Shown: positions 7,506 through 26,586, counted from the first letter of the stretch. The stretch is 32,000 nt of DNA from Acinetobacter guerrae (GCF_009372255.1 NZ_LXGN01000059.1:4564-36563); one strand, 5' to 3'. Numbers and translations are program-made. The notes: generated by a model from the letters alone, not told the origin.

Positions 7506-8924
7506 TTACTTAGAATTGCGATAAAATATAAAGTGGCTGATATAGCAAATCGCAATAAAAATAAGACAGCAAATAAAACCTGTCAGCATTTCAGGATCTG
7601 CCGCCATGCTTAAACAGGTAATCAGACAGAAGAAAAATCCTAAGATAGGTACAATAGGAAATAAAGGTGCTGCAAATTTTAAATCCTGAATAGTATGACC
7701 TGTTTTGTACCACTGCCGTCTGAAATTAAATTGGCTTAAACAAATACTCATCCAGACTACCACCATCGTAAATGCAGCAACACCCAATAGATTTTTAAAA
7801 ATGGTTTCAGGTGCAAATTGTTCAGATAATAGGCCAGGAATCGCACCAAACATGGTAACAATCAACGCAACAATAGGCGTGCCACTTTGGGTAAGTTTAG
7901 AAAAAATACGTGGTAAATGTTGCTGCGAAGAAAGAGACCACATCATCCGTGAAGCAGCATATAAACCTGAATTTGCGGCTGAGAGTAGTGCCGTAATAAT
8001 TACAAAGCGAATAATATCGTCTGCGTAGGGGATTCCAATATAGTTAAACACAGTAACAAATGGACTATTACTCACACTATGACCGCCTAAACCAGCCTGT
8101 TCAAAGGGCAATAATGCGCTAATGACGATAATCGTACCCACAAAGAAAATTAATAAACGCCAGATCGCTGCATTGATCGCCTTTGGAACATTGTCAGCAG
8201 GATCTTTGGTTTCTCCTGCTGCAACGCCAATCAGTTCAGTACCCGAAAAAGCAAAATTGACAATCAGCATAGTGGCAAAAATGGGCATGAGTCCCTGAGG
8301 AAACCAACCTTGCGCAGTCAAATTACTAAATAAAGGGGCTGTTTCGTAACCTTGAAAAGAAATTAAGCCAACAATGGCCAATAAGCCCAATATAATAAAA
8401 CTGATAACGGTAATAACTTTAACCAGAGAAAGCCAGAATTCAGATTCGGCAAAAATTTTAGTTGAGCTTAAATTCAGGGTGAAAATGGTGATTGCAAAAA
8501 TAAGTGTCCAGATCCACATTGAAATATGAGGAAACCATTCCTGCATGAGCAAGGCAGCCGCAGTGAATTCAGTTCCTAAAGTCGCTGTCCATGTCAGCCA
8601 ATATAACCATGACACTACATAACCTGTACTTGGGCCAATATACTTGGCAGCATATGCCCCAAAAGAACCAGAAACAGGCATGTGTACTGCTAATTCACCC
8701 AAACATAGCATAACCATGTAGGCAATCAGCCCACCTAAAATATAGGCAAGGATTGCGCCAACTGGGCCTGTTTGTGAAATGACTTCACCTGAGCCTAAAA
8801 AAAGACCTGTACCAATTGCGCCGCCTAAAGAAAGCATGACCAAATGGCGCGTACTCATTGCTCGTTTTAAAGGAGCGGAATGATTGGATGAGGAGGTTAT
8901 ATTTGAAGATTCAGATGGTTGCAT
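7506..8924 (-). CDS. amino acid permease, APC family (LysP-like)
   Basis: The 472-aa product is a multi-TM protein. RHLVMLSLGGAIGTGLFLGSG...GELAVHMPVSGSF closely resembles the LysP/AroP signature. I chose the start at Met59 of the track ORF (MQPSESS) because the upstream extension translates the tRNA-derived attL repeat. Confidence 0.85.
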   Translation of the reverse strand: MQPSESSNITSSSNHSAPLKRAMSTRHLVMLSLGGAIGTGLFLGSGEVISQTGPVGAILAYILGGLIAYMVMLCLGELAVHMPVSGSFGAYAAKYIGPSTGYVVSWLYWLTWTATLGTEFTAAALLMQEWFPHISMWIWTLIFAITIFTLNLSSTKIFAESEFWLSLVKVITVISFIILGLLAIVGLISFQGYETAPLFSNLTAQGWFPQGLMPIFATMLIVNFAFSGTELIGVAAGETKDPADNVPKAINAAIWRLLIFFVGTIIVISALLPFEQAGLGGHSVSNSPFVTVFNYIGIPYADDIIRFVIITALLSAANSGLYAASRMMWSLSSQQHLPRIFSKLTQSGTPIVALIVTMFGAIPGLLSEQFAPETIFKNLLGVAAFTMVVVWMSICLSQFNFRRQWYKTGHTIQDLKFAAPLFPIVPILGFFFCLITCLSMAADPEMLTGFICCLIFIAICYISHFIFYRNSK

Positions 8925-9037
8925 ACACAACGTCACGTTCAAAATGGAGAAGCGCGCTATTGTAGAGAAAAATTTGAAATGTGCAATCTTGAGGCAGACA
9001 AACAATAGCCAACAAGTACAATAAAAAAGGATTTTAT

Positions 9038-9095
9038 AAAATGGCGTCCCTACGGGGATTCGAACCCCGGTTACCGCCGTGAAAGGGCGATGTCC
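9038..9095. repeat. attL: 58-bp direct repeat carrying a duplicated 3' fragment of tRNA-Glu
   Basis: The sequence is identical base for base to 17587-17644 (AAAATGGCGTCCCTACGGGGATTCGAACCCCGGTTACCGCCGTGAAAGGGCGATGTCC). Identity ends at 9037/17586 and at 9096/17645. Confidence 0.95.
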
Positions 9096-9141
9096 CAAAT
9101 GTCATATTTCACTATGATAATATTTGTAAAGTTTTGTAAAT

Positions 9142-9963
9142 TTATTGAAGTATTGGTAGTTTTTTCAACACATCGTGTAAATGTTCAGGCGCTAGATGCG
9201 CGTAACGTTGTGTAATTCGGATGTCAGAATGACCCAACAATGTTGAAACATGATAGAGAGGGACACCATTCTTAACGAGAAAACTAGCAAATGTATGCCT
9301 TAAATCATGAATCCTTACATAGCCTAGATTTGCTCTTTTTACCGCTAATTCAAATCCACGTCGAAAGCTTCTAATATTTTTATCTGTTTTAGGATTATAA
9401 AAAACATAATGTTTATGTGAACGTAACCTTAGTAATGCAGCAATACAAACAGTGTTTAAAGGCTTATAAACGGTTTTTTTATTCTTTGATAATGAATTTC
9501 GAATAATTAAATATCTATGTTCTAGTGACACATTTGACCAAGTTAGTGTAGTTAATTCAGAAGCTCGACAACCTGTATTCAAAGCCAATGTTATAAAGTC
9601 ATAAAGCATAACATTATCCCTTGTTGCAGTTAATAACATACGACATTCAACAGATGTTAAAAAACGAGGAATGAAATCTGCTTCAAAAAGTTTAAATCTA
9701 TTAAATGGATTTTTAAAATTAGCAGTCTGATTATATTTAAGATAGTAATTAAAAGCCGACCTAATTAAATTTAACTCCCTATTAATTGTAGTGTTTTTAA
9801 CACCTTGTAATTTTCTAAAAGTACAATAGTCTGTTATATGATTAATCGTAATTTCGTCATGATCATAAAACCACTCCAAGTGTTTTAATTTTTCTAAATA
9901 TGTATGCTTTGAATTATAAAGACCGTTTTTACAGTAAAAGTTAACTATTTCTTGTATATCCAT
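9142..9963 (-). CDS. int: tyrosine recombinase / phage integrase
   Basis: The 273-aa ORF has the catalytic signature TGCRASE...HDLRHTFAS...LLGHSDIRITQRYAH (R...HxxR...H...Y). It lies just inside attL. Confidence 0.85.
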   Translation of the reverse strand: MDIQEIVNFYCKNGLYNSKHTYLEKLKHLEWFYDHDEITINHITDYCTFRKLQGVKNTTINRELNLIRSAFNYYLKYNQTANFKNPFNRFKLFEADFIPRFLTSVECRMLLTATRDNVMLYDFITLALNTGCRASELTTLTWSNVSLEHRYLIIRNSLSKNKKTVYKPLNTVCIAALLRLRSHKHYVFYNPKTDKNIRSFRRGFELAVKRANLGYVRIHDLRHTFASFLVKNGVPLYHVSTLLGHSDIRITQRYAHLAPEHLHDVLKKLPILQ

Positions 9964-10216
9964 GATTCACCAATATGTAATATTTTGCCAATCGTGTTTT
10001 TTGAGTGAATTTACAATATACATAAATATCAATAATTTAATAATTTGTTCCTGGCAAAATTTTCAACCAGGATAAGATCTGAAGTTGGTAGATAATGCAA
10101 GTCAGTTCGCGCCCTGCGGGACGCTCTAAAACTCCCGCTTAGAGTTGAGCGGGAGCTTGTAATCAGGGAAATGGTTTCAAAATTCGATAGGGTCAGTTCA
10201 CTCGTAGACACTCGTT

Positions 10217-10471
10217 CTATGATTTATGAGCATCTTCATATTCGTAATGGGTTGCAAACAAAGCCAATAAGATAAAGAATCCCATAAAAACAGTTATTAC
10301 CGCTATACCACGAGATACATAAATTGAGTCAATAAAATAATCAATGTAGTCAACATAAGTCAAAAAGCAGTTAAATAAAAATATACATAAATACTTTAAG
10401 AAAAACAGGGCAATAGGAAGTAGTGCTAGAAATATAAATGTATAGGCAAGATATTTTAAAAATGCTTTCAT
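10217..10471 (-). CDS. small membrane protein with 2-3 predicted TM segments, translationally coupled to pI/Zot
   Basis: The 84-aa ORF is very hydrophobic. Its ATG overlaps the TGA of the Zot-like gene (ATGA at 10468-10471). Confidence 0.55.
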   Translation of the reverse strand: MKAFLKYLAYTFIFLALLPIALFFLKYLCIFLFNCFLTYVDYIDYFIDSIYVSRGIAVITVFMGFFILLALFATHYEYEDAHKS

Positions 10472-11991
10472 AGCGCATTTGCTCCAGTAATTTTCTTTTG
10501 TAAGTCAGATTGAACGTAATTATTTGCTTGTTGTTGATCATGCAAATATGAAAGATATAGCTCATATTCTTGAGCAGTCATTTTGGCATTATCTTTCGTA
10601 GTATTTTGTTGACTATAAAGCGAACTACTTGGCGAATTACTGTTTTGATTAGATAGTCCATTTTGTTGTCCTTGTTGAGCAAAATAATTGAAAGGGCGAT
10701 CACCAGACATGATTTTTTTGCAATCAGATTGTGATACTTGTAGACGCGTTCCTTGTTGTGTATATCCAGTAAAAGTGCCATCACGATTGGTCATACAACC
10801 AGACAAAACAGGCTTTGCAGTCACATCGTAATGAACAGAATTTTGAATTTGATCAGTATCAAACGGTTTATTCGGGTTATAAGAAACTACAGTTGTTTGA
10901 CCAGATGAATTAGTGGCAGAAGCTTTATTTTTAGATAAGTCATTGAACCACTGAACACACTCAGGCTTTTCTACATTAACTGCCTTGCGACATTCCTGAG
11001 CAGCGTTAAATTGCTGATCAGTTTTTGTTTGTTTGGATGAGTTAGGCTGTGATTGATTTGCAGTTACAGGCTTTCCATTCAAACCATTAGACACTTGATC
11101 ATAGATGACGTTGTCGCGTGTAACGAAATAGCCAAATAAACAAGCCATAACAATCACGAAAGCACCGATGAAATAGACAAATCTGGGAATACGTTTCTGA
11201 GATGTATCAATCGTGGTCGATTTATACAATGTAAAAATACGGTCAGCAGGCTTAAATGATGTCTTAGATTCACAGTTAATTTTATTAATTAATGCATTGG
11301 GATTATCACGTGCAGAGCCGTACTGATAAACTTTGCACGTCCAACCGAAAGGACGTGTCAAATGATAATGAGCCGTAAACAACTCTTTCATCACAGGATG
11401 CAAATATCGTGTTGCTTGGGTGATGATATAGAAGTCAAATCCACGATGACGATGTATCGTAAGATGCATAATCATTTCATCTTCAGACTTTTTATTTTTA
11501 TATGGTTCTACAAGTTGTATTTCGTCAATAACAATAATTGAGCCGTCTGGGGCATCACGCCAATCGTAAATTAATGGACGTGAATACGGGATTTTACAAG
11601 CTTTGATATTTGTATAAATAGTGCGAACGGGCTGTAAAAACTGAAAATCCTGTTTTCCGTATTGATCATTAATGCGATCTACAATTTCATTATAAATCGT
11701 GGTTTTCTTAAAATAATCGTCAGGACGTAAATCTTCAAAGTCTTCATTTAAGAAATGAAAGTAATCATCTGAAAGCATATCAACTTGTGTTATGCGATCA
11801 GATCCAGAGCCTACTTCATAGATATGTAATAGAAATTCATCTTTGAATTTCTCAAATAATGGCTTGTTATGTTCAAAAATGATTTTGTTTTTGCGTACAT
11901 TAATAAAGTTAGCTTTTTCAATAAGATCAAGTTTATTAACGACAAAAGCAGTTTTTTGAGAGCCTGGCGTACCAGTGACTAAATATAACAT
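10468..11991 (-). CDS. Zot / pI-family phage assembly ATPase
   Basis: The N-terminus MLYLVTGTPGSQKT is a Walker A motif, and IIVIDEIQ is a Walker B motif. A central TM segment (FVYFIGAFVIVMACLFGYFV) is followed by a Q/N/S-rich C-terminal domain. A GGAG RBS is present, and the gene sits after the pVI-like gene. Confidence 0.8.
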   Translation of the reverse strand: MLYLVTGTPGSQKTAFVVNKLDLIEKANFINVRKNKIIFEHNKPLFEKFKDEFLLHIYEVGSGSDRITQVDMLSDDYFHFLNEDFEDLRPDDYFKKTTIYNEIVDRINDQYGKQDFQFLQPVRTIYTNIKACKIPYSRPLIYDWRDAPDGSIIVIDEIQLVEPYKNKKSEDEMIMHLTIHRHRGFDFYIITQATRYLHPVMKELFTAHYHLTRPFGWTCKVYQYGSARDNPNALINKINCESKTSFKPADRIFTLYKSTTIDTSQKRIPRFVYFIGAFVIVMACLFGYFVTRDNVIYDQVSNGLNGKPVTANQSQPNSSKQTKTDQQFNAAQECRKAVNVEKPECVQWFNDLSKNKASATNSSGQTTVVSYNPNKPFDTDQIQNSVHYDVTAKPVLSGCMTNRDGTFTGYTQQGTRLQVSQSDCKKIMSGDRPFNYFAQQGQQNGLSNQNSNSPSSSLYSQQNTTKDNAKMTAQEYELYLSYLHDQQQANNYVQSDLQKKITGANAL

Positions 11992-12056
11992 TTTTACTCC
12001 TACGCGCGGGCTTGGTCGGGCGTCGAAGCTCCTACTCCCGCGCCCGCGCTATGTCG

Positions 12057-12335
12057 TCATTTTTTCTTTAGTAGATGTAATGGGGAGGCTTGTTTATAGT
12101 GCTTTGCGACAATTGCACCCAAAACCAATGAAAAGTAAATATGCAGACCAGTGACACCGAGCATTTGTAAAAGCACAGCAGGCAATTGATTCACAGAATT
12201 ATGAAAGTGATTAATCATCGTATTAATGATTGCTAATGCAATACCAGCAGTACCTAGAGTTACGCCCGCACCTTCTAATACATTTTTTAAGAAGCCTTTT
12301 TGTACGCTTGCAAGTAATGTCGATAAACTAGGCAT
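12057..12335 (-). CDS. pVI-like minor coat / membrane protein (assigned by position)
   Basis: The 92-aa hydrophobic ORF overlaps the end of the pIII-like gene by 8 nt. It occupies the gIII-gVI-gI position of Ff-type phages. Confidence 0.45.
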   Translation of the reverse strand: MPSLSTLLASVQKGFLKNVLEGAGVTLGTAGIALAIINTMINHFHNSVNQLPAVLLQMLGVTGLHIYFSLVLGAIVAKHYKQASPLHLLKKK

Positions 12336-13557
12336 CTTGACGTACTCCGGCGACTATATAGAGCGCATGTAATGAGCCAAGAGCAACAACAATCGGATAT
12401 ACAAAAGTCGATATAGCTTCACACCACATCGTAAAGTCGAATGAAAAATCTAGAGTTCCACCGTTCCATTGGAAAGTGAGAGGGATTTTTGCAGGGCATG
12501 CAGTAGAGAAGTTTATAGACGAATCAGGTTCAGTTTCTGTATTTTGATCAATATCTAATTCGTTATCAGATGGCTCATCTTTTTTTACCCAGTCAATAAC
12601 ATCACAAACAGCAGTTGCCCAAGAACAAAAAGCAGGCAATGAAAATGAATTTGCACCTGTTTCAGGATCAGGTTCATTTTCTTTAATTTTGTCATCTTCA
12701 GTACGAGGAGATGCATTTTCAAGCTGACGTTTAACTTCTTGAACAGTCGGAGAATTCGCATATTCCCAGTCATTTAAGGGTTTCCAAAGATTTGTTTGAA
12801 CTTCTGGTTTGTATTTAGGTTCAAGCTTTGCAGCCAGTTCAGGTTTTGAGTAATCGGGATGTGTATGATTCGCATATTCTGCAAGTTCTTCTTCAGTAAG
12901 AACTTCTTTGTCTGGTTTTATTTCTTGATCTTTTGTCGCTTTAACAGAAGCAAAATCGTTTCCCCAAGGACCAGAAAATTCATATTCTTTGACCCAATTG
13001 ACTTTGTTTTGTTCTAGATCGCCAACCCACTTCACGAATTTAAAGTCAGTACCACGTATTCTTAATTGTTCTTTCGCTGCCTCAAGGGGACAACCATATG
13101 TATTCTGGCCACCTTGCCATTTAACTGAGAAATATTTTCCATCTTCGAAAATATTTCCAGAACATTGATTCGGAGATCCAGTATCAGATTGTTGTTTATA
13201 TCGCCAGATACTTTGAGCTTGAGGATCAATAATCCAGTCAACTGCTTCAAGTAAAGCTTGTAATGCATCATATCCATTCAATGCCCAATTAGCACGACGT
13301 AAAAGTCTAGACATTCCAACAGCGCCCGCTTTAGCTTTATTTGCAGTAGTTTTTGGATCAATTTTAACTTCGTATTTTTTATCGTTAATAGCATCGCCAT
13401 ATTGATCAACTTTATACGCTTTAACTTCAATATTTAATGGTTTTTGAACAGGTTCATATTCCCACTTTTCAGCAGCACCCGCAAAAGCGTGATGAAATGG
13501 AACAATATAAATGCTGAACATCAATAATATTGTCAGATATGTTTTATAACGACCCAT
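12328..13557 (-). CDS. pIII-like adsorption / minor coat protein
   Basis: The start was moved to MGRYKTYLTILLMFSIYIVPFHHAFA, a signal-peptide-like N-terminus. The 409-aa product has a C-terminal membrane anchor (YPIVVALGSLHALYIVAGV) and directly follows the coat gene and its terminator. Confidence 0.55.
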   Translation of the reverse strand: MGRYKTYLTILLMFSIYIVPFHHAFAGAAEKWEYEPVQKPLNIEVKAYKVDQYGDAINDKKYEVKIDPKTTANKAKAGAVGMSRLLRRANWALNGYDALQALLEAVDWIIDPQAQSIWRYKQQSDTGSPNQCSGNIFEDGKYFSVKWQGGQNTYGCPLEAAKEQLRIRGTDFKFVKWVGDLEQNKVNWVKEYEFSGPWGNDFASVKATKDQEIKPDKEVLTEEELAEYANHTHPDYSKPELAAKLEPKYKPEVQTNLWKPLNDWEYANSPTVQEVKRQLENASPRTEDDKIKENEPDPETGANSFSLPAFCSWATAVCDVIDWVKKDEPSDNELDIDQNTETEPDSSINFSTACPAKIPLTFQWNGGTLDFSFDFTMWCEAISTFVYPIVVALGSLHALYIVAGVRQDA

Positions 13558-13620
13558 GTCACCACCATTATAGAAATCGGTAAAATCCAATAAAAAATTG
13601 AAGCTTCTGGCATACATCAC

Positions 13621-13651
13621 TCCAAAATAAGTTAGCCCCCGAAGGGGCTAA
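13621..13651 (-). terminator. hairpin terminator after the major coat gene
   Basis: TTAGCCCC-CGAA-GGGGCTAA sits 4 nt downstream of the coat stop. On the minus strand it is followed by TTATTTTGG. A strong terminator after gene VIII is typical of Ff phages. Confidence 0.7.
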
Positions 13652-13654
13652 GGT

Positions 13655-13939
13655 TTAGGCAGCGTTAGCACCTTTGTTAAGTTTTCGATAACCGATGATC
13701 ATTGCTGTAAGTGTTGCAGCAGCAACCAAAATCGAAACAATGATTGTTCCCGCTGCACCTAACTGACCAGTAATTGCAGTACCTACAGCAGTCAAATCAG
13801 TAACCTCAGCGTGAGCTGAATTGGCAAGAATTAAACCCGTAGTTGCAGCAGTACCCGCAGCTAGACGACCACGAAATTTTTGAAACCAAGTTTTTTGATG
13901 AACTTGTTGAACCATTGGTGTTACGTTTGAATAAGCCAT
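13655..13939 (-). CDS. inovirus major coat protein precursor (pVIII-like)
   Basis: An AGGAGA RBS lies upstream of the ATG at 13939. A 44-aa leader ends in ANSAHA. The predicted 50-aa mature peptide is EVTDL...(hydrophobic core)...YRKLNKGANAA, with an acidic N-terminus and a basic C-terminus. Confidence 0.75.
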   Translation of the reverse strand: MAYSNVTPMVQQVHQKTWFQKFRGRLAAGTAATTGLILANSAHAEVTDLTAVGTAITGQLGAAGTIIVSILVAAATLTAMIIGYRKLNKGANAA

Positions 13940-13962
13940 GACAATTTCTCCTATGTTGTTGT

Positions 13963-14166
13963 TTAGGCTAGTTTTGCAGCTTTCATAATGAAGCTGTAAG
14001 CGATCAAAAGACCGCATATCTTCGCAATCTCTTTTGAAATCGCGATAGAATCGGCTTGAGTAATTGCCAAACCACCGAAGATTTGAGCAATACTCAAAGG
14101 AACATAGTCCGTGCATGTTTTTACGTTATTTACAATTTCAATAGCGGAACAAACGTACACGTCCAT
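13963..14166 (-). CDS. small partly hydrophobic phage protein (possible minor virion protein)
   Basis: The 67-aa ORF has an AGGAA RBS and lies immediately upstream of the coat gene, in the gVII/gIX position. Confidence 0.45.
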   Translation of the reverse strand: MDVYVCSAIEIVNNVKTCTDYVPLSIAQIFGGLAITQADSIAISKEIAKICGLLIAYSFIMKAAKLA

Positions 14167-14177
14167 TTTTTAAATTC

Positions 14178-14492
14178 CTAAGACAAAAGTTTTTGTATTT
14201 CAGCAAAAGACATTTGCTTATCAGAGATATCTATAGAACAAGTCATTCGATCCGAATAACCGTTAAGATCAAAATCAAAGTATTTAATACTCGTACCTTG
14301 AGCTGATTCATGTTTATAACGACCAATAGAGTGAATGAACGATTTACGTATTGCTTTTTCACCAATAAAGACAAGATCATCTACAGATGATTTAGAAAGC
14401 AATTCTTGAAAAACAACCGATTTAGAAGTAATTCGATTCAATCGTTCAGCATGTTGTTGTCGGTCATATTCTTTTTCACTAATACCAAACAT
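14178..14492 (-). CDS. hypothetical soluble phage protein
   Basis: The 104-aa ORF starts 2 nt after the stop of the 35-aa micro-ORF. I recognised no motif. Confidence 0.5.
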   Translation of the reverse strand: MFGISEKEYDRQQHAERLNRITSKSVVFQELLSKSSVDDLVFIGEKAIRKSFIHSIGRYKHESAQGTSIKYFDFDLNGYSDRMTCSIDISDKQMSFAEIQKLLS

Positions 14493-14494
14493 AA

Positions 14495-14602
14495 TCAGCC
14501 CTCACATTTAGACATGTGGAACGGCAAATATTGATAATGAAAATAGCTAAAGCATTTCAGGCATTCGGCTTGATTGTCACCGTTCATAAATACATATTTC
14601 AT
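14495..14602 (-). CDS. 35-aa Cys/His-rich micro-ORF (MKYVFMNGDNQAECLKCFSYFHYQYLPFHMSKCEG), absent from the ORF track
   Basis: I translated this by hand from the reverse complement. A GGAG RBS lies 8 nt upstream, and the TGA is 2 nt from the next ATG. The spacing is CxxC-x4-H-x6-H-x3-C. Confidence 0.4.
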   Translation of the reverse strand: MKYVFMNGDNQAECLKCFSYFHYQYLPFHMSKCEG

Positions 14603-14622
14603 ATTTGCCACTCCGAAATAGC

Positions 14623-14952
14623 CTAAGCAGATTTTTGAGCCTGATTGACTGTTGATTTTTGATCAGTAGGGGAGGACTTTGGAACTAAGTCTTTAATAAT
14701 CGTGGTCATCGATTTACCATTTGAAACTTGTTCTAGTGTTGCTTCAGCAACAAGCGGGAACTCAAGATGCTTGATCTTGTCAAAATTGGCAGAAGTACCC
14801 CATTTCATTTGTTCACCAACTTCACCGACGAAATTATCGCCCTCTTGTAAGTCAGCTTTGAAGAAAACAGTAGTACTATCAAATGGACGTCCGTTGTATT
14901 CGCCCTTAGTTGATTTAGCACCCAAAACGATCATGTCTGTTTTAAATAGCAT
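14623..14952 (-). CDS. putative ssDNA-binding protein (gV/RstB position)
   Basis: The 109-aa ORF has an AAGGA RBS and overlaps the Rep 3' end by 11 nt. The assignment rests on position and size only. Confidence 0.4.
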   Translation of the reverse strand: MLFKTDMIVLGAKSTKGEYNGRPFDSTTVFFKADLQEGDNFVGEVGEQMKWGTSANFDKIKHLEFPLVAEATLEQVSNGKSMTTIIKDLVPKSSPTDQKSTVNQAQKSA

Positions 14953-16423
14953 GGATAAATTCCTTATAAGATGATTGGTTCACAAGCGGTACACCGACAA
15001 ATAATGAATAATCTTCATCATTGTTATTTGCTTGGATTGGTTGATCGAGACGTAATGCAGCCATAACAGCAGCATGTGAAAAATTAAGACGTTTTGGTAC
15101 AACGTCCTTATCAGATGAAATGATGTTTAATAAATCTTCATCATTGATGAACTTGCGGAACTGACGGATATATTTACCGAATTGATGTTTAACGATTTCC
15201 AATGCTTTATCGACATTGATCGTTGCCTGTTTTTTTACAAGCTCACATTTTTCTGGTGCTACAAAATCATTCAACTTGTCACATAAAACTTCAAGGGCAG
15301 GGTATGAATCTTTAAAGTAAGCACTTGGCTTTAGAAGAATATCTAAAGGTAAATAACGGTCAGTCGATTTAAGCTCAAGCTCGGCACGTGTCCAAAGACT
15401 TAATGAATCGCCCTCTTTTTTGCCACGTTCATAAAAACGAAGAAATTTAGAACTTGAACGATTGCCGATAGTTAGAGTACGACCCTTGCCGTTAATACGC
15501 TTCCAGTCACCGAGTTTATTTATTTCTGAATTGCGACCACCGCACCAGAACATTTCTTGAGAATCCCATTGGTCAGCAAGATCGACAGACACCCATTCGC
15601 TTTCAAAATCATCAAATGCAATATCAACACGGTTTAATTTTGGTGTTTTGGCTTCTGTTTTGAGCCAATTATAAAGTTGTTCATTCCAACCCTTGCGAGC
15701 CAAAGCGCAACCAGTACCATTAATTTGAACCGTAATTCGTTTATTATTATGACCGTACAAGACAACCCCCAAATTGTCTTGCAGATCATAGCCGTACTTA
15801 TTCCAGTGCATTCCCTTGTCACGTTTTTGAGTAATACCGAAACCGAAAATTTCAAATAATAATTGATCAAGCCATGTTTCTATTGCATCGCCGACAGCAG
15901 CATCGACTTGTTCTGGTTGAAGCTGAACGTATTTATCACCAAAAGTGCTTTGGCAAAAGCTAAAAGTCACCCAGTCAAGACCTACAATATTATTTTCAAT
16001 AGGTGAACAGGTGAGAACTGGTACAACGCCTTGGGGAGTTGAAATTAACTTGCAGTTATCTAAATGACGTGGAAAAGCCCATGACTCAGATGTCTGTTGC
16101 GTATCCGCTACCCCTATATTATAAAAAGGGGTGCTTTCTGCCGTGTTTTGCGCAGTTTTGGCGAATTTTTGTACAAATATTTCTTGAATAGAAATTTCAG
16201 CAGGTTTGGATTTTTTCTCTTGTGGTTGATCAAATGCAGACAGTTTATTTTTTACAATGCCATCGAGCATGTTCTTTAAAATCTGACCATCAGAAAGAGC
16301 TACATCGCCAAAAGCTGTAGATGCATGGATTTCATCAAATATGAATTTTTGACGATCATAGATTTCTACAAGTGATAATGATGAATTATCAAATTCAAAA
16401 ATGAGATTCATTAAATTGTTCAT
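14942..16423 (-). CDS. rolling-circle replication initiation protein (Rep_trans/RstA-like)
   Basis: The 493-aa ORF carries LRFYERGKKEGD...WTRAELELKS, which resembles the Rep_trans (PF02486-type) signature as I recall it. It sits upstream of the structural module. Confidence 0.65.
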   Translation of the reverse strand: MNNLMNLIFEFDNSSLSLVEIYDRQKFIFDEIHASTAFGDVALSDGQILKNMLDGIVKNKLSAFDQPQEKKSKPAEISIQEIFVQKFAKTAQNTAESTPFYNIGVADTQQTSESWAFPRHLDNCKLISTPQGVVPVLTCSPIENNIVGLDWVTFSFCQSTFGDKYVQLQPEQVDAAVGDAIETWLDQLLFEIFGFGITQKRDKGMHWNKYGYDLQDNLGVVLYGHNNKRITVQINGTGCALARKGWNEQLYNWLKTEAKTPKLNRVDIAFDDFESEWVSVDLADQWDSQEMFWCGGRNSEINKLGDWKRINGKGRTLTIGNRSSSKFLRFYERGKKEGDSLSLWTRAELELKSTDRYLPLDILLKPSAYFKDSYPALEVLCDKLNDFVAPEKCELVKKQATINVDKALEIVKHQFGKYIRQFRKFINDEDLLNIISSDKDVVPKRLNFSHAAVMAALRLDQPIQANNNDEDYSLFVGVPLVNQSSYKEFIHAI

Positions 16424-16533
16424 TTAATATCTCCCATTACTTCAGATGACTGAACTTCTTTTAAATCATGAAGAAGCCAAGCAAGAGTTGATAAGACGAT
16501 AAACAAAGAAATAAAAAAGATTCGAATATCCAT
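16420..16533 (-). CDS. 37-aa single-TM micro-ORF (MDIRIFFISLFIVLSTLAWLLHDLKEVQSSEVMGDIK), absent from the ORF track
   Basis: I translated this by hand. Its ATG shares one base with the TAA of the upstream 85-aa ORF (TAATG). Its TGA overlaps the Rep ATG (ATGA). Confidence 0.4.
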   Translation of the reverse strand: MDIRIFFISLFIVLSTLAWLLHDLKEVQSSEVMGDIK

Positions 16534-16790
16534 TACTCTTCTCCAAACGCTTCTATTAATTCTTGATTTGCGTTTTTATAGATTTCTGCAAAAGCATCTA
16601 TCGTTGATGCGTCATAAGACCAGTCATGAGCAACAGTTGCTAAATGCATTAGACATTTTTCTGCTGAAATGGCAGGTGTTAAAGCTTCAAGACATGGTTC
16701 AGCGTGATCTGATACGATTTTGGCTACTTGTTCAAAGGCAGCTTGGATAAAATCTGTTTTAGTTTTAAAGACTAATTGAGCATCGTTCAT
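16533..16790 (-). CDS. acidic 85-aa hypothetical phage protein (first gene of the minus-strand module)
   Basis: The ORF has plausible protein composition and is coupled to the downstream genes. I recognised no motif. Confidence 0.5.
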   Translation of the reverse strand: MNDAQLVFKTKTDFIQAAFEQVAKIVSDHAEPCLEALTPAISAEKCLMHLATVAHDWSYDASTIDAFAEIYKNANQELIEAFGEE

Positions 16791-16824
16791 TTAGAATGCT
16801 CCGAAACAGACAGGGGATTTAAAA

Positions 16825-17208
16825 TTGATATTAGAAAAAATTCTTGTTGTATTGATTGTTCTTACAGTTTTGTCTTTAGTGACATGGTGGACACAAAGAA
16901 AAGGAAAACCCAAAGTAAGAAGAATGGGAACAGATAAAAACAGTCGTTTATCAGATTTAAATCTTCTATATGACCGAGCTAAAAAAGAGTTCATAAGCTT
17001 AGAGGTCAGAAAATTTACAGATAAAGTTGTTATTAGCGAAAAGTCACTATTTAACAAGAATCCAAAAGACTTAGTTTTTATTACACTAAATCCAAACAGG
17101 GGAAAATCAGTATCTAAAAAAGGACTATTTGTAGTAGCACGATATCCACATGTACCAACAAGAGAAGAAATGCAAAAAGATTTTGCACGTGTCTTGAATA
17201 AATACTGA
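16825..17208 (+). CDS. N-terminally membrane-anchored basic protein, unknown function
   Basis: The TTG start is preceded by AGGGGA 7 nt upstream. A TM helix (ILVVLIVLTVLSLVTWW) is followed by a K/E-rich soluble part. I prefer this ORF over the antisense 140-aa ORF, which contains no Glu at all. Confidence 0.5.
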   Translation: MILEKILVVLIVLTVLSLVTWWTQRKGKPKVRRMGTDKNSRLSDLNLLYDRAKKEFISLEVRKFTDKVVISEKSLFNKNPKDLVFITLNPNRGKSVSKKGLFVVARYPHVPTREEMQKDFARVLNKY

Positions 17209-17267
17209 TGCATAAAAAGCCCCTTGATTGTTCTCGATTATCAATATCGGGTTCTTTTTTGTAAAAC

Positions 17268-17343
17268 TTCCCAAATTTGGGAATGCATGAACAAAAAAAA
17301 CTTCTAATATTTGTTAAGTAAAATACTTAACTAATTTTAGAAG
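17268..17343. promoter_or_regulatory. operator-like palindromes upstream of the HTH regulator gene
   Basis: A perfect 16-bp palindrome, TTCCCAAATTTGGGAA, occupies 17268-17283. A 43-bp nested inverted repeat, CTTCTAA-5-GTTAAGTA-AAA-TACTTAAC-5-TTAGAAG, occupies 17301-17343 and ends 16 nt before the ATG. Confidence 0.5.
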
Positions 17344-17359
17344 CACAAGAGGTTAAAAA

Positions 17360-17647
17360 ATGCTTAAAGAACTAATTGAGGCAGGAAAAGAAAGATTTGG
17401 AAGCTATGAAAAACTAGCATGTAGGCTTGATGTATTACCGCCAGTAATTTCAGATTGGAAAGCAGGAAGGAAAAAACCCAACACAATTCAAGTCATGCAA
17501 ATGGCTGAATTTGTTGGGTTTGATCAGTTCCAAACCCTCTGCTTAGTCATGCAAGAAATCGACATGAAAAACGCAGAGCTTTGGAGAAAATGGCGTCCCT
17601 ACGGGGATTCGAACCCCGGTTACCGCCGTGAAAGGGCGATGTCCTAG
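17360..17647 (+). CDS. HTH DNA-binding regulator (Cro/CI/YdaS-like), candidate prophage repressor
   Basis: The 95-aa ORF has an AGAGG RBS and a helix-turn-helix-like segment, SYEKLACRLDVLPPVISDWKAGRKKP. Its last 20 codons and stop lie in attR and the tRNA-Glu sequence. Confidence 0.6.
   Translation: MLKELIEAGKERFGSYEKLACRLDVLPPVISDWKAGRKKPNTIQVMQMAEFVGFDQFQTLCLVMQEIDMKNAELWRKWRPYGDSNPGYRRERAMS
17587..17644. repeat. attR: 58-bp direct repeat (part of the intact tRNA-Glu gene plus AAAA)
   Basis: The sequence is identical to 9038-9095. Confidence 0.95.
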
Positions 17648-17666
17648 GCCTCTAGACGATAGGGAC
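17591..17666 (-). tRNA. tRNA-Glu(UUC): tRNA-Glu (anticodon UUC), 76 nt with encoded CCA
   Basis: The reverse complement is GTCCCTATCGTCTAGAGGCCTAGGACATCGCCCTTTCACGGCGGTAACCGGGGTTCGAATCCCCGTAGGGACGCCA. It folds as a cloverleaf and is near-identical in layout to E. coli tRNA-Glu. Confidence 0.95.
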
Positions 17667-17683
17667 GTTTAGCAGGTGGGCGT

Positions 17684-17712
17684 ATAGTAGGGCGATTTAC
17701 AGGGAGTGTCAA
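17684..17712 (-). promoter_or_regulatory. sigma-70 promoter of tRNA-Glu
   Basis: On the minus strand I read TTGACA, a 17-nt spacer and TACTAT, followed by a GC-rich discriminator (ACGCCC). The -10 element lies about 18 nt upstream of the mature tRNA 5' end. Confidence 0.55.
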
Positions 17713-17898
17713 ATGATTTTTGGAATAAAAAAGACAAAGTAAAATAAGTGTTTAAATTTAGAGCAATACTGAATAGAAAACGAACTATGCATCAATTTGC
17801 TTTAGACTAATGTTAAAAATGATGCGCTTTCAATAATAGCTTAGATCAAGATAAATGCTGTAATTAACAATTTATTTCAAATTGGCAGTAGGTGGGTG

Positions 17899-17926
17899 TT
17901 GCAAATTTATATGAAGCCTGTATATT
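17899..17926 (+). promoter_or_regulatory. candidate sigma-70 promoter for the cold-shock gene (long 5' UTR)
   Basis: TTGCAA, a 16-nt spacer and TATATT would give a leader of about 150 nt. Long leaders are typical of cspA-type genes. Confidence 0.3.
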
Positions 17927-18079
17927 ATACTTGGCAAAAATAGCTTTGTTTCAGTAAATCTCTCATTTCGCAGTTTTATTCATAATCCTTCGTTTGTTTT
18001 AGATATTTTAGTTTCATTGTTTATTTTTTGAGTTAATTCCATGTTGGATCAATGTTTTTAAAAAATAGAGGATTATGGT

Positions 18080-18295
18080 ATGTCAAATAATACTGGTACA
18101 GTTAAATGGTTTAATGAAACTAAAGGTTTTGGTTTCATTCAGGCAGATTCTGGCGAAGATGTGTTTGCACATTATAGCGAAATTTCAAATTCAGGTTTTA
18201 AAACCTTACTAGAAGGCCAACGTGTACAATTTGCTATTGTACAAGGTAAAAAAGGTCTTCAGGCTAGCAATATTACTGTTGTACAAGGTAACTAA
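18080..18295 (+). CDS. cold-shock protein, CspA family
   Basis: [15 protein letters not shown] (RNP1) and DVFAHYS (RNP2) are present in a 71-aa product. Confidence 0.95.
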
Positions 18296-18314
18296 GCCTT
18301 AGTTAGATAGTTTT

Positions 18315-18350
18315 TAAAAAAGCCCATAAGTAAATTATGGGCTTTTTTTT
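18315..18350. terminator. bidirectional terminator between csp and the DMT gene
   Basis: AAAAAA-AGCCCATAA-GTAAA-TTATGGGCT-TTTTTTT. Confidence 0.8.
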
Positions 18351-18359
18351 GTTTTGTAA

Positions 18360-19250
18360 TTATGATCTTATCTCAACATTTTGACTAAATTTCCAACACA
18401 TGATTGCTCCAAAACTAACTAGACAGGTTCCCAACCAAAAAGTCCAATGTGGCATGGTTTGAAGTAATAGGCTTGCAAATAAGCTTGATAAAACAGGTGT
18501 AAAATAAGAGGCGAGTAATAAGAATTGAATCTGACCAAATTGTAAGCTTTGATTCCAGTTTTTATAGGCAATGCCAATCATGGTTCCCATAATGATAATA
18601 ATCAACCAGAGTGATGTGGATGGCATTTGCCATGATTGATGCGTAATAAAAAATAAGAGCCATAACGAAATTGCGGTTAAACAAAAAAATAGGGGTACGC
18701 CATTATGACCTTGTGCATATTTCGGAGTCATTACACAGTACATTGACCATAATATTGCCGCAATAAATGCAAGTAGATAAGCAACAGGATTTTTTGTAAT
18801 GATATCTAAAAATAAAGAAAAATTAAAAAAATCAGGATTAATGACGATTCCAAGTCCTATGAGAGAAATTAATATACCTAAAAATGCTGGCAGTCGAAAA
18901 AAAAGCTGTCGATTTAAGTAGGCAAAGAAAAGAGTAAGACTTGGCCATAAATAATTGACCATTGCTAAAATTAACGCTTCTTGACGAGTATGGGATAGAC
19001 CAATTGAACTTAAAAATAGAATTTCATAAAGAACAAAAAAACTGCCACAGAAAATTAAATATTTTTTGGGTAATACAACGGTAAAAGCGCGAGGATTTAA
19101 TAGCACGATGCTGATAGCACTTATGCTATAAAGCAGTGCAATACCAAGTAGGGGTGTCAACTGTTCGGTAACTAACTTTACTCCGCCAACAATGCTTGCC
19201 CAAATTAAAATGGAAGATAAGCCAACTAAATTGGCAGTAATGGGCTTCAT
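18360..19250 (-). CDS. DMT-superfamily (EamA-like) transporter
   Basis: The 296-aa ORF has about 10 hydrophobic segments arranged as two repeated halves. Confidence 0.7.
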   Translation of the reverse strand: MKPITANLVGLSSILIWASIVGGVKLVTEQLTPLLGIALLYSISAISIVLLNPRAFTVVLPKKYLIFCGSFFVLYEILFLSSIGLSHTRQEALILAMVNYLWPSLTLFFAYLNRQLFFRLPAFLGILISLIGLGIVINPDFFNFSLFLDIITKNPVAYLLAFIAAILWSMYCVMTPKYAQGHNGVPLFFCLTAISLWLLFFITHQSWQMPSTSLWLIIIIMGTMIGIAYKNWNQSLQFGQIQFLLLASYFTPVLSSLFASLLLQTMPHWTFWLGTCLVSFGAIMCWKFSQNVEIRS

Positions 19251-19357
19251 TCAACAATACCAACACGAACAATACAATTATTTTAAACAGAAGAATGAGC
19301 AAGAAGACAAATTATTTTTTTAAAGTTATGCACTGCATTAAGTCATAAATATAAAAA

Positions 19358-19438
19358 TGCACCAATATGGTTCGTAATTTTATGTATAAAAATTCCTGAA
19401 AATGAAAATGTCTGAATATGGTGCAATTAAAATTGCAC
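19358..19438. promoter_or_regulatory. candidate NtrC enhancer half-sites upstream of glnA
   Basis: TGCACCAATATGGTTCG lies at 19358-19374. TGGTGCA and TTGCACGC lie within the 18-bp palindrome GTGCAATTAAAATTGCAC at 19421-19438. Both resemble the TGCACC-N5-GGTGCA consensus. Confidence 0.35.
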
Positions 19439-19520
19439 GCAGTATAATAGTCTAGGGATACAGGTTTCTATTTTAATATTCTGCTAAAGAATTCAATAAA
19501 TTAGAATAGTCCTAAAAAGT

Positions 19521-19536
19521 TGGTATGGGAATTGCT
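19521..19536 (+). promoter_or_regulatory. sigma-54 (-24/-12) promoter of glnA
   Basis: TGGTATGGGAATTGCT fits TGGYAYRNNNNTTGCW with exact GG-N10-GC spacing. It lies about 67 nt upstream of the glnA ATG. Confidence 0.65.
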
Positions 19537-19602
19537 TTATATCTGCCAACGACTAACACGCACTTCACAAGTGCAATAATACTTCATTGGAGCATACAGA
19601 GC

Positions 19603-21012
19603 ATGGCGAACAAGGTCCTCGAACTCATCAGAGAAAGTGGCGCTAAATGGGTCGATTTTCGCTTTACGGATACTAAAGGTAAAGAGCAACACGTTACTTA
19701 TCCAGCAGATTCAATTGATGAAGATACATTTGAAGACGGTAAGATGTTCGACGGTTCTTCAATTGCAGGTTGGAAAGGCATTGAAGCATCTGACATGATT
19801 TTACGCCCAGATGCAGAAACTGGTTTTATCGACCCGTTCTTTGCTGAGCCGACAGTGGTTGTGACTTGTGACGTTATTGAGCCTTCAACGGGTCAAGGTT
19901 ATGAACGTGATCCACGTTCGATTGCTCGTCGTGCAGAAGAATATTTAAAATCTACAGGTATTGGCGACACAGCATTTTTTGGTCCAGAACCAGAATTTTT
20001 TGTATTTGACGAAGTGAAATGGGACATTGATATGTCTGGCGCTCGTCATACATTGATCGCTGAAGAAGCTGCATGGTCAACAGGTAAAGACTATGAAGCA
20101 GGTAACTCAGGTCACCGTCCACGTGTTAAAGGGGGTTACTTCCCAGTTCCTCCAGTAGATTCTTCACAAGATATGCGTGCAGAAATGTGTGCAAAAATTG
20201 AAGACATCATGGGTCCTGGTCGTGTAGAAGTACATCACCATGAAGTTGCATCTTGCCAGTTAGAAATTGGTGTAAGTTTCAATACAATGGTTCGTAAAGC
20301 TGACGAAGTACAACAGTTCAAATATGCAGTTTGGAACGTTGCGCATCAGTACGCTAAAACAGCAACCTTTATGCCTAAGCCTATGGTTGGTGATAATGGT
20401 TCTGGTATGCACGTTCATATGTCGATCTCTAAAGATGGCAAGAACTTGTTTGCTGGTGATGAGTACGCTGGTTTGTCAGAAATGGCGCTTTATTTCATCG
20501 GTGGTGTCATCAAGCACGCTCGTGCATTGAATGCAATCACAAACCCATCTACAAACTCTTATAAGCGTTTGGTTCCTCACTTCGAAGCGCCGATTATGCT
20601 TGCTTACTCTGCACGTAACCGTTCAGCGTCTATCCGTATCCCTTATGTGTCTAGCCCGAAAGGTAAGCGTATTGAAGCTCGTTTCCCAGATCCAATGATG
20701 AACCCGTACTTGGGCTTTGCAGCATTGTTGATGGCGGGTATTGATGGGATTCAAAACAAAATCCATCCAGGTGAAGCTGCTGACAAAAACTTGTATGACC
20801 TTCCTCCTGAAGAAGAAGCGAAAATCCCGACAGTTGCTCATAGTCTGGATATGGCGCTTGAAGCATTACAAAATGATCACGAATTCCTTCTTAAAGGTGG
20901 CGTGTTCACTAAAGAAATGTTGGATGCTTACATCGAACTTAAAACTGAAGATGTACGTCGTTTAAATACAACGACTCATCCAGTTGAATTTGATATGTAT
21001 TACAGCTTGTAA
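19603..21012 (+). CDS. glnA: glutamine synthetase type I
   Basis: The 469-aa product runs from [23 protein letters not shown] and contains the motifs [21 protein letters not shown] and the adenylylation-site context [10 protein letters not shown] chose the start at 19603 (GGAG RBS) rather than the track's 19525. Confidence 0.95.
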
Positions 21013-21025
21013 TCCATTTCGAATT

Positions 21026-21055
21026 AAAAAGCTCGCTTAATGCGGGCTTTTTTTT
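21026..21055 (+). terminator. glnA terminator
   Basis: AAAAAGCTCGC-TTAAT-GCGGGCTTTTTTTT. Confidence 0.75.
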
Positions 21056-21126
21056 ATTGATCTTTTTATGAGTGATAGCATTAGGTTATTAGAGATTTAT
21101 GCTCTAATGCTCAAATTTTAGATATA

Positions 21127-21158
21127 AAAAAACCCGCTTTAATGCTGCGGGCTTTTTT
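21127..21158. terminator. hairpin terminator downstream of tRNA-Asn (bidirectional form)
   Basis: AAAAAACCCGC-TTTAATGCT-GCGGGCTTTTTT. Confidence 0.65.
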
Positions 21159-21163
21159 GTATT

Positions 21164-21239
21164 TGGCTCTCCCACCTGGGCTCGAACCAGGGACCTGCGG
21201 ATTAACAGTCCGTCGCTCTACCGACTGAGCTATGGGAGA
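21164..21239 (-). tRNA. tRNA-Asn(GUU): tRNA-Asn (anticodon GUU), 76 nt with CCA
   Basis: The reverse complement is TCTCCCATAGCTCAGTCGGTAGAGCGACGGACTGTTAATCCGCAGGTCCCTGGTTCGAGCCCAGGTGGGAGAGCCA. The anticodon loop is CTGTTAA. Confidence 0.95.
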
Positions 21240-21475
21240 ATCTGAAAGCGATTATAAGGAGATTTAAAATAGGGTCAAGCCCAATCTGTCATGTTTGCTT
21301 CATTTTAGGTGTGTATGTTCTTTATTTGAACAAATGTTGCCCACAGCATAAAAAACCTTGTACTTTTTTGGACAGCTTGCTATGTTTAAAAGCATCAAGT
21401 GTTTGAACAATTATCAAACCGTGTGGATTTAACCCAACTTGCCAGCACTAAATGGCTAAATCGGAGGGCAGTATT

Positions 21476-21901: not shown

Positions 21902-21934
21902 TGGGTTGAGATATTTATGGGGGAGCTTTTCTAG

Positions 21935-22618: not shown

Positions 22619-22777
22619 TGGCTATAGCTTCCCTGTCTGTGTAATTGAAGTATACGAAAAAAATTCTGAGATATAAATATTTTTTAAAAAAATATATTTT
22701 TATATTGAAAAAATATATTTTTGGATTATATTGGAATCATGAACAGTTTTTAATCGATATATACAGGGAGTAAAGCC

Positions 22778-23635: not shown

Positions 23636-23727
23636 TCATTAAGAAATGAGCTAAACAAGACGGTGTTATTCGGCTCAAATCTAGAGAGAAAGTAAGGACT
23701 ACTTTTGATGACCTAAAGAGGATTGCA

Positions 23728-24651: not shown

Positions 24652-24699
24652 ATCGTTACAAACCAAATTATCGCTCGGTATGAGAAATGGAGTTTCATC

Positions 24700-26529: not shown

Positions 26530-26550
26530 ATTTAACAAGTTCATATAAAT

Positions 26551-26586
26551 AAAAAACCCGCTAGATCAATCTAACGGGTTTTTTTA
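26551..26586. terminator. bidirectional terminator between the monooxygenase and aminotransferase genes
   Basis: AAAAAACCCGCTAGAT-CA-ATCTAACGGGTTTTTTT. Confidence 0.75.

Follow-up and report, generated by a model that had tools for sequence, protein, structure and literature searches.

A probable filamentous prophage in a tRNA-Glu gene of Acinetobacter guerrae and its mosaic relatives within the genus

The DNA considered here is a stretch of 32,000 nucleotides from Acinetobacter guerrae (GCF_009372255.1, NZ_LXGN01000059.1, positions 4564-36563), which is called the window in what follows and is numbered from its first letter. Between 9038 and 17644 it carries a compact block of genes enclosed by two copies of the 3' end of a tRNA-Glu gene. 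The best explanation overall is, very probably, an integrated filamentous phage genome that belongs to a mosaic group of Acinetobacter inoviruses.

Borders and genes of the element

A repeat search of 8000-19000 revealed a direct repeat, identical at 58 of 58 nt, at 9038-9095 and 17587-17644, with a spacing of 8549 nt and an enclosed interval of 8,491 bp. Each copy combines 54 nt from the 3' end of tRNA-Glu(TTC) with a further 4 nt, which read AAAA on the plus strand. At the left edges AAAA is preceded by AGGATTTTAT in one copy and by CTTTGGAG in the other, at the right edges GTCC is followed by CAAATG or by TAGGCC, and the outer and inner flanks of the two copies are unrelated. A 17-mer taken from the repeat occurs twice in the window, both times in the repeat copies, against a chance expectation of 0.01. 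The copy at 17587-17644 (attR) lies within an intact tRNA-Glu(TTC) gene (17591-17666, minus strand; ARAGORN, and 58.2 bits for the Rfam tRNA model), the presumed integration target, and that at 9038-9095 (attL) is a partial tRNA-Glu copy plus the 4 nt, with only a sub-threshold partial Rfam tRNA match. The repeat search, ARAGORN and Rfam thus agree with a preliminary description of this DNA, which had reported an exact 58-bp duplication of the tRNA-Glu 3' end with abrupt loss of identity on both sides. The window holds two tRNA genes, the second one being tRNA-Asn (21164-21239), and an Rfam scan of the prophage gave nothing besides tRNA. The G+C content of the prophage is 35.6%, versus 40.2% and 38.7% in the flanks.

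Between the repeats there are 13 open reading frames (ORFs) on the minus strand and two on the plus strand, separated by short gaps or overlapping by 1-11 nt (Zot/o84, 4 nt; pVI-like/pIII-like, 8 nt; Rep/109-aa protein, 11 nt; o37/Rep, 4 nt; o85/o37, 1 nt); the tight packing, with all genes but two on the minus strand, had been noted before. The main minus-strand operon comprises, in this order, o85, o37, Rep, a 109-aa protein, small proteins, the coat protein, a terminator, and the pIII-like, pVI-like and pI/Zot proteins. The ORFs were assigned by searches against the profiles of Pfam, PHROGs and NCBIfam, with the results given below. The core ORFs are all full length with respect to their homologues, which is consistent with the absence of truncations stated in the preliminary description. 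The gene order given there also holds, but a 273-aa tyrosine integrase had been left out, together with a divergent module adjoining attR that consists of a membrane protein (o127) and a helix-turn-helix (HTH) regulator. In the following the genes lie on the minus strand unless the plus strand is named, and labels beginning with L denote loci fetched in this analysis.

The integrase (9142-9963) is XerC/D-sized and matches PF00589 (E 1.8e-30) and phrog_1 (E 7e-54), and its similarity to the XerA/C/D models of NCBIfam is below cutoff. An alignment with five relatives shows no change in its catalytic residues (R133, H219-x-x-R222, H245 and Y254). Between the end of the gene and attL there are 46 nt, and the nearest phage integrase, with 37% identity, is that of Pseudomonas phage D3, a siphovirus. 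The conserved region upstream of it (9964-10102) is a probable int promoter or leader, with blocks that are conserved across lineages whose integrases are merely 42-66% identical, and it includes the 14-mer TATTTATGTATATT. This 14-mer has two copies in the window, both on the minus strand (10015-10028 and 10380-10393; expected, 0.04); the one upstream of the integrase is conserved in L118 and L120, and the other lies within o84.

The pI/Zot-type assembly ATPase (507 aa; 10468-11991) matches PF05707 (E 1.4e-12, 47.9 bits against a cutoff of 20.3), phrog_197 (6e-53) and phrog_1041 (2e-37), and contains a Walker A motif (GTPGSQKT, aa 7), a Walker B motif (IIVIDE, aa 152) and a transmembrane segment (aa 271-290). 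Among deposited phages its closest counterparts are those of Dulem virus 65 (48%) and Acinetobacter phage M02 (33%). The rolling-circle initiator (493 aa; 14942-16423) belongs to Rep_trans, the family of RstA-type initiators, with matches to PF02486 (E 1.8e-20, 73.8 bits against a cutoff of 29.6) and phrog_453 (1e-91), and is full length compared with homologues of 490-495 aa. Both genes had been given these identities before, and the lack of a match to Zot/pI or to a rolling-circle Rep had been named as a refutation; the profile matches bear the assignments out.

The gene that follows Rep, in the gene V position, codes for the 109-aa protein (14623-14952), which matches phrog_4994 (6e-33), a family without annotated function, and has no sequence match in PDB. 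An AlphaFold2 model built with 28 homologues (pLDDT 86.5) consists of a beta-barrel and one helix, and its top 50 Foldseek matches in PDB are mostly SSB, PriB and other OB-fold proteins, although these matches are weak (best E 4e-3, TM 0.4-0.5). It is a predicted OB-fold and a probable ssDNA-binding protein, as had been proposed for this place in the operon.

The major coat precursor (94 aa; 13655-13939) has a signal peptide and a predicted mature peptide of 50 aa after AHA/E, with an acidic N-terminus, a hydrophobic core and a basic C-terminus. It aligns with the Pf1 coat precursor (NC_001331, 821-1069) at 38% over 69 aa (pairwise BLASTP E 4e-5), and the cleavage sites are in register (AFA/GVIDTSAV in Pf1, AHA/EVTDLTAV here). 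The precursor gave no Pfam match, nothing meaningful among PDB sequences and no tblastn match in phage records, and its match to phrog_2145 ('major head protein') is weak (E 0.0026). It appears to be a Pf1-like coat protein, with moderate support for homology. After the coat gene there is an intrinsic-terminator-like hairpin (13632-13651; 8-bp stem with 5 G-C pairs, then a T-run), and Pf1 has an annotated rho-independent terminator at the equivalent place. The precursor, its cleavage site and the hairpin had already been described.

Downstream lie the genes for a pIII-like adsorption protein (12328-13557; 409 aa from ATG, or 430 aa from an alternative GTG start at 13620) and for a pVI-like minor coat or membrane protein (DUF2523; 92 aa; 12057-12335). 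The former has a signal peptide and a C-terminal anchor, and matches phrog_7568 (5e-31) and, with 34.3 bits (cutoff 24; E 1.7e-8), the TspB C-terminal domain NF041109. This domain is typical of the pIII-like adhesins of filamentous phages of Neisseria and Acinetobacter, and is likewise annotated in the adhesin of A. baumannii filamentous phages. The DUF2523 protein matches PF10734 (E 5e-8) and phrog_1242 (3e-14), and its gene is placed as in phage M02. The two proteins, known so far as a secreted anchored protein and a small membrane protein, are thereby attached to families with scores above cutoff.

The remaining small ORFs had been taken together as candidate accessory functions. This still fits o104 (14178-14492), a soluble protein, and o84 (10217-10471), a small membrane protein whose gene overlaps that of Zot, which both occupy variable slots and have no family or defence match (Pfam, PHROGs, NCBIfam, PADLOC); o104 is present in one of 32 IMG/VR relatives (L084, 82%), and the o84 slot of relatives holds unrelated ORFs of 44-102 aa. 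On the other hand, o85, o67, o38 and o127 are conserved parts of modules. The first gene of the Rep operon, o85 (16533-16790; phrog_20873, 3e-39), is found directly upstream of Rep in nearly all relatives. o38 (14495-14611) is a conserved, Cys-containing micro-ORF, with 37-75% tblastn identity in many relatives, in some of which it sits between o85 and Rep. o67 (13963-14166), a small protein with a hydrophobic C-terminus in the pVII/pIX position, accompanies the coat/pVI/Zot module in relatives (66-88% in L085, L094, L097 and L120) and is, by position, a candidate minor coat protein. The micro-ORF o37 (16420-16533) has a transmembrane segment and is translationally coupled to Rep, overlapping its neighbours by 4 nt and 1 nt; a small ORF is called there in some relatives, and there is no other support for it.

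Integration and activity

The block combines a pI/Zot ATPase, a small coat protein, a rolling-circle Rep, the order coat-pIII-pVI-pI and a unit of 8,549 bp, within the class range of 5-15 kb. With the repeats and the integrase also considered, 9038-17644 is very probably an integrated Inoviridae-type phage placed by its own tRNA-specific integrase. A circular phage DNA of about 8,549 bp would have carried, as attP, a sequence identical to the final 54 nt of tRNA-Glu(TTC) and the adjoining 4 nt. Recombination of this site with the chromosomal tRNA gene by the XerC/D-sized integrase would have restored the complete tRNA at attR and left an incomplete one at attL, beside an amino-acid permease gene. 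The products of the main operon would then drive rolling-circle replication and the extrusion of an ssDNA filament through the envelope, probably by way of a host secretin because the element encodes none. The plus-strand module formed by o127 and the 95-aa HTH regulator, which is near palindromes, probably controls lysogeny. On excision, the expected attP junction is ...GCAGAGCTTTGGAG + 58-bp att + CAAATGTCATATTTC and the restored attB junction ...AAAAAGGATTTTAT + att + TAGGCCTCTAGACG. The CTXphi-type route, defined by XerCD, a dif-like attP and the lack of an integrase, does not correspond to what is found here, namely an own integrase and tRNA repeats.

With the flanking permease as a probe, 80 loci were obtained from Acinetobacter, and 49 of these have a full tRNA-Glu that starts about 190-240 nt before the permease start, nothing intervening. 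The closest of these empty loci (L001-L004) come from A. ursingii (L001) and three further species, with about 84% nucleotide identity, and their alignment with the window runs over 17672-17587 and then jumps directly to 9095-3107. The tRNA-Glu/permease loci of related species thus have the arrangement of the expected empty site. The proposal of an integrated filamentous phage made in the preliminary description is upheld by these sites and by the Zot, Rep_trans, DUF2523, TspB and Pf1-like coat matches. The empty-site check suggested there finds its variants in related species, but the side given for the junction needs correcting: position 9096 belongs to the prophage, and what should follow the tRNA is the host sequence that ends at 9037.

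As for the permease itself, its mechanically called ORF (7506-9098, minus strand; 530 aa from TTG) extends through attL, and the true start is most likely the ATG at 8918 (470 aa, as in homologues). The integrase is co-oriented with it and ends about 220 nt upstream, and read-through from the prophage into the permease is possible.

The sole other public copy of the element is a Logan contig of 8,551 nt (SRR11855378), equal to window positions 9066-17616, which comprise the interior and 30 nt from either repeat. It was considered as a circular form; its ends fit a k=31 graph break at the repeat, and it appears uninformative with regard to a circle.

Several further points limit the reading of an integrated and still functional phage. 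A degenerate four-junction pattern was scanned against metagenome contigs and the attL/attP junction against metagenome and viral contigs, and the attP, attB and attL junction patterns gave zero matches in these assembled collections, a result that is neutral as to excision. Neither an excisionase or recombination directionality factor (RDF; Xis, HTH_17 or MerR-type) nor a secretin (pIV) was recognised in any ORF with Pfam, PHROGs and NCBIfam. The statistics behind two of the assignments are modest, both for the coat protein (pairwise E 4e-5) and for the ssDNA-binding protein (Foldseek E 4e-3, TM 0.4-0.5). Finally, the empty sites come from other species at about 84% nucleotide identity and none from A. 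guerrae, and synteny with the empty-site species is lost beyond the far side of the tRNA.

The odds that excision and particle production are still possible seem to be about even. Intact core genes, identical att copies and a functional-looking integrase speak in favour of it. The alternative that best survives is a complete-looking but inactive (cryptic or domesticated) prophage, inserted by the same integration route and kept as a passenger or for some benefit to the host, which falls somewhat short of an even chance. It would account for the lack of a recognised excisionase, although the RDFs of Pf phages are small and poorly conserved HTH proteins that are easily missed (PMC7549136); small RDFs being often unrecognisable, this lack makes inducibility less confident and leaves the integration route unaffected. 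The same alternative would fit the 34-nt gap between the divergent starts of o85 and o127, which leaves little room for promoters, and the lack of a circular junction in public collections; the latter, however, is to be expected from collections that consist of assembled contigs and contain no relative above about 89% Rep identity. The missing secretin could also be counted on its side, but such absence is common, since many inoviruses without a secretin use that of the host (CTXphi, Pf). Less compatible with an inactive prophage are the intact, full-length core ORFs, the match of the att copies at all 58 positions and the preserved catalytic residues of the integrase.

It is very improbable that the element is a non-autonomous satellite or an integrative mobilisable island borrowing genes from filamentous phages, like Vibrio RS1 or TLC-phi. 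Its reliance on host functions such as the secretin, and the occurrence of the integrase/att/regulator/o127 cassette on different phage backbones, would suit such an island, but the full set found here (Rep, ssDNA-binding candidate, coat, pIII-like, pVI-like and pI proteins) is lacking in satellites, and both size and order are those of autonomous inoviruses, including M02 and Pf1. That the repeat arose by chance or from assembly, the block being ordinary chromosome or a misassembled join, can practically be dismissed: the Logan assembly does break exactly at the repeat and short-read assemblies alone cannot prove linkage, but an exact 58-nt repeat is not a chance event in 32 kb, the architecture bounded by a tRNA 3' end recurs in independent assemblies that include long contigs and complete genomes, and the same proteins are found on an NCBI A. 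guerrae contig of 82,447 nt.

Relatives and comparison with known phages

The Rep, integrase and Zot of the integrated phage exactly match NCBI proteins of A. guerrae, whose annotations are generic. Homologues of Rep with 60-95% identity are present in many Acinetobacter genomes (among them A. ursingii, soli, junii, haemolyticus, towneri, chinensis, nosocomialis, radioresistens, gerneri and nectaris) and in many short metagenome contigs. In IMG/VR there are 32 related contigs (Rep 50-89%), several of which are circular by terminal overlap and have no integrase; because of these circular integrase-less relatives, the modules can be ascribed to autonomous phages. The best IMG/VR match has a Rep of 89% identity but a different integrase (42%) and Zot (43%).

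Repeats of the tRNA-Glu 3' end also bound L120, L058 and L123, with spacings of 8563, 8105 and 8020 bp. On the other hand, L114, whose integrase is 42% identical, is bounded by repeats of tRNA-Arg(CCG), and L117, which ends at a contig edge, shows a tRNA-Arg end only. The Rep module of A. ursingii L125 is alike, but it is combined with a PF05356-type coat protein and a 410-aa Zot, and L123 has a different Rep of 445 aa, yet its o127-like protein, 95-aa regulator, integrase and tRNA-Glu att are alike. From these comparisons, integration, replication and morphogenesis modules are exchanged within a large group of Acinetobacter inoviruses. The group is already present, unnamed, in IMG/VR and RefSeq; the element itself is new to it and fairly ordinary. 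Inovirus prophages with direct repeats in a tRNA or beside an integrase are an already recognised category (PMC6813254).

Among deposited phages the similarities are distant. A megablast of the whole element against GenBank phages gave the tRNA match only, and the closest phage Rep proteins, at about 35%, are those of uncultivated human-associated inoviruses. Two 240-kb records named 'Acinetobacter phage MD-2021a' (CAKLQF020000004.1 and CAKLQH020000003.1) match through an annotated tRNA-Glu only; their size and draft-contig naming suggest that they are bacterial contigs filed as phage. Resemblance to the uncultivated inoviruses of IMG/VR (Roux et al. 2019, PMC6813254) lies in Rep (50-89%), that to Dulem virus 65 in Zot (48%), and none of them is the same phage.

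The element is closest in logic to the Pf phages and in host to the filamentous phages of A. baumannii. Pf phages of P. aeruginosa (Pf4/Pf6-type, Pf-tRNA-Gly/-Met/-Sec; PMC7549136) are likewise temperate, carry their own XerC/D-like tyrosine integrase and use the 3' part of a tRNA as att, of 27-46 bp compared with 54+4 bp here. Five integrase types matched to five tRNA or tmRNA targets have been exchanged in Pf between two structural lineages (PMC7549136); here also the integrase type tracks the tRNA target (tRNA-Glu versus tRNA-Arg lineages) and integration modules have been swapped between structural lineages. Further common traits are the Pf1-like coat protein, the terminator after the coat gene, the lack of a secretin and the divergent repressor region. 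The differences lie in the position of Rep_trans, upstream of the ssDNA-binding gene here (the Ff/CTXphi order) and after Zot in Pf4, in the lack of a recognised XisF-like excisionase, in o127, which has no Pf counterpart, in the host genus, and in the integrase, with about 37% identity at most to any Pseudomonas phage integrase.

With the A. baumannii filamentous phages (Af1, groups A-J, PMC11209303; M02, OQ693633) the element shares the genus of the host and the block of coat, adhesin with TspB C-terminal domain, DUF2523 and Zot, whereas the Zot of M02 is 33% identical and its Rep unrelated. Af phages are described as having an IS110-type transposase, or flanks of replication and regulation modules like those of XerCD-dependent phages (PMC11209303, PMC12285184), and neither of these two papers mentions a tyrosine integrase or a tRNA site. 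Af groups are defined by Zot/CoaB similarity of at least 50% and by an IS110 transposase or Rep/regulator-flanked ends (Narancic et al. 2024); the element, with a Zot of 33% to M02 of group A (the only group compared by sequence), no transposase and tRNA-repeat ends, lies outside this definition.

CTXphi and Ff have in common with it the succession from replication to ssDNA-binding protein and then coat, pIII, pVI and pI, as well as a regulator opposite to the Rep operon. CTXphi differs in its integration at dif by host XerCD, without an integrase, in place of the own integrase and tRNA att found here. Ff phages are non-integrating and have a pIV secretin, and neither a secretin nor a toxin cargo is seen in the element.

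None of this overturns earlier views. Studies in A. baumannii describe transposase-bearing or XerCD-like prophages only, and the present results indicate that species other than A. baumannii (guerrae, ursingii, soli, junii, haemolyticus, towneri and others) carry a large mosaic inovirus group with tRNA-specific tyrosine integrases, in parallel to Pf. In Pseudomonas and Vibrio, filamentous phages alter biofilm formation and motility as well as virulence and antibiotic tolerance; two recent papers report such effects for A. baumannii too. Annotations as 'Zot toxin' should be read with care: the Zot of this element is a phage assembly ATPase and does not constitute evidence of an enterotoxin. The data could be of use for the annotation of prophage borders, and the cis elements and lysogeny modules for the engineering of Acinetobacter phages; a cis-acting element and a portable integrase/att/regulator/o127 cassette, described below, are most worth following up.

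Conserved noncoding element, probable lysogeny module and right flank

Conservation of the 253-nt gap that separates o84 from the integrase extends across the tRNA-Glu and tRNA-Arg lineages. The Zot-proximal part of this gap is a structured noncoding element of about 115 nt (10103-10217, minus strand), which consists of a direct-repeat block GAACGAGTGTCTACGAGTGA, in which the 7-nt direct repeat ACGAGTG occurs twice, a block CTGATTACAAGCTCCC, two hairpins and the motif GAACTGA. This element is found once per genome, on the gene-sense strand and just downstream of Zot, in about 20 relatives, among them circular integrase-less genomes and the isolate phage M02, whose conserved block GCGAGTGTCTACGAG...CTGATTACAAGCTCCC is also located just downstream of Zot. 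A single gene-sense copy of the block CGAGTGTNTACGAG is present in each of 19 fetched loci, and it follows directly after Zot in all those where Zot could be placed. RNAalifold gave compensatory changes in 7 of 12 predicted pairs, mainly in hairpin 2, and there is no Rfam match. Some relatives with a similar or near-identical Rep do not have the element (L085, L089 and L125, which are circular or complete).

A role as Rep nick site or plus-strand origin was considered and rejected, the element being missing in L085, L089 and L125 and present in M02 with an unrelated Rep (BLASTP E 1.7). A 60-aa ORF at 10029-10211 was likewise discarded in favour of a non-coding region, as it has no homologues or family matches and overlaps the conserved, partly covarying region. 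With low confidence, the element can be regarded as a probable cis-acting site on the ssDNA, a packaging signal or else a complementary-strand origin; its place in the main intergenic region, always where the morphogenesis operon ends, fits these roles better. It is shared by Acinetobacter inoviruses whose Rep proteins are unrelated and whose Zot proteins are very divergent, and could be a cis module specific to the host genus that is exchanged horizontally and read by the host machinery. Taken jointly, it is unlikely that the cis element and/or the integrase/attP/regulator/o127 cassette involve new biology.

Tandem repeats were also seen in two relatives. In L123 (3897-4006) there are 4-5 tandem 22-nt repeats (TTATACCACTTGATAAAATAAT), iteron-like, between an ORF downstream of Zot and the integrase, at the position occupied by the cis element in the window. 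L096 (3512-3601) has a 9-nt tandem repeat (CCAACWGAC) of at least 8 units between the gene for the 109-aa protein and Zot, probably inside the pIII-like gene, where it would code for a Pro/Thr/Asp-rich linker.

The HTH regulator (95 aa; 17360-17647, plus strand), a repressor candidate, matches phrog_638 (3e-11, 'transcriptional regulator'), and its homologues in L114, L117 and L120 have weak or faint HTH_3 matches. Its last 20 codons or so cross attR, antisense to the tRNA, and its stop is a TAG in host sequence. The homologues overlap att in the same manner, in tRNA-Glu as well as in tRNA-Arg lineages (L114 4213-4509; L120 17-304). In the reconstructed circle the regulator would have 134 aa versus 95 aa in the prophage, and overall the excised forms would be about 40-60 aa longer. 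The idea that integration switches the C-terminus of the regulator was nevertheless rejected, given that the tail is a translation of antisense tRNA and that one L120 reconstruction stops at 75 aa; the GDSNP/GSNP similarity of the tails stems from the tRNA T-arm. The overlap of regulator and att is probably incidental.

o127 (16825-17208, plus strand) is an N-terminally membrane-anchored protein of a small unannotated family. It is conserved at the protein level in P0223-P0225 and L084 (29 invariant columns), with a conserved N-terminal transmembrane helix and a conserved C-terminal domain, and is thus a real gene. An antisense ORF of 140 aa (16791-17213), predicted by a gene caller on the Logan contig, was set aside, as it has no homologues while the plus-strand o127 is conserved. 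The o127 family has only 22 clusters among 1.84 billion representatives, the protein has no fold match, and no function emerged from Pfam, PHROGs, NCBIfam, PADLOC, AlphaFold2 with Foldseek against PDB, or the search of the full representative library. One may speculate that it is an immunity or superinfection-exclusion factor.

A homologue of o127 (79%) is found at the same place in L123, a different inovirus prophage, and at least two different phage backbones have the gene placed between Rep operon and regulator. The integrase, attP, HTH regulator and o127 may move as a unit between backbones. In relatives of the A. ursingii group (L120 412-972, L125 7664-8224) the o127 slot is filled by a 186-aa DUF2726/DUF559 endonuclease-like protein, and this suggests a cargo slot beside the regulator.

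The regulatory intergenic region between o127 and the regulator (17209-17359) contains an o127 terminator-like hairpin (17233-17251) and, just upstream of the regulator, a perfect 16-bp palindrome TTCCCAAATTTGGGAA (17268-17283) and an inverted repeat with 20-nt arms (17301-17343). The latter two are plausible candidate operators. In L095, two 25-nt direct repeats are located where the window has these palindromes.

Outside the prophage, the left flank is syntenic, and the sequence to the right of tRNA-Glu (17667-32000) shows a gene order found neither in A. ursingii nor in the other 79 loci. The 5' side of tRNA-Glu marks a boundary, of a rearrangement or of an island. The right flank contains, among other genes, a cold-shock-like gene (18080-18295), an ORF for a predicted membrane protein (18360-19250) and the tRNA-Asn gene mentioned above.

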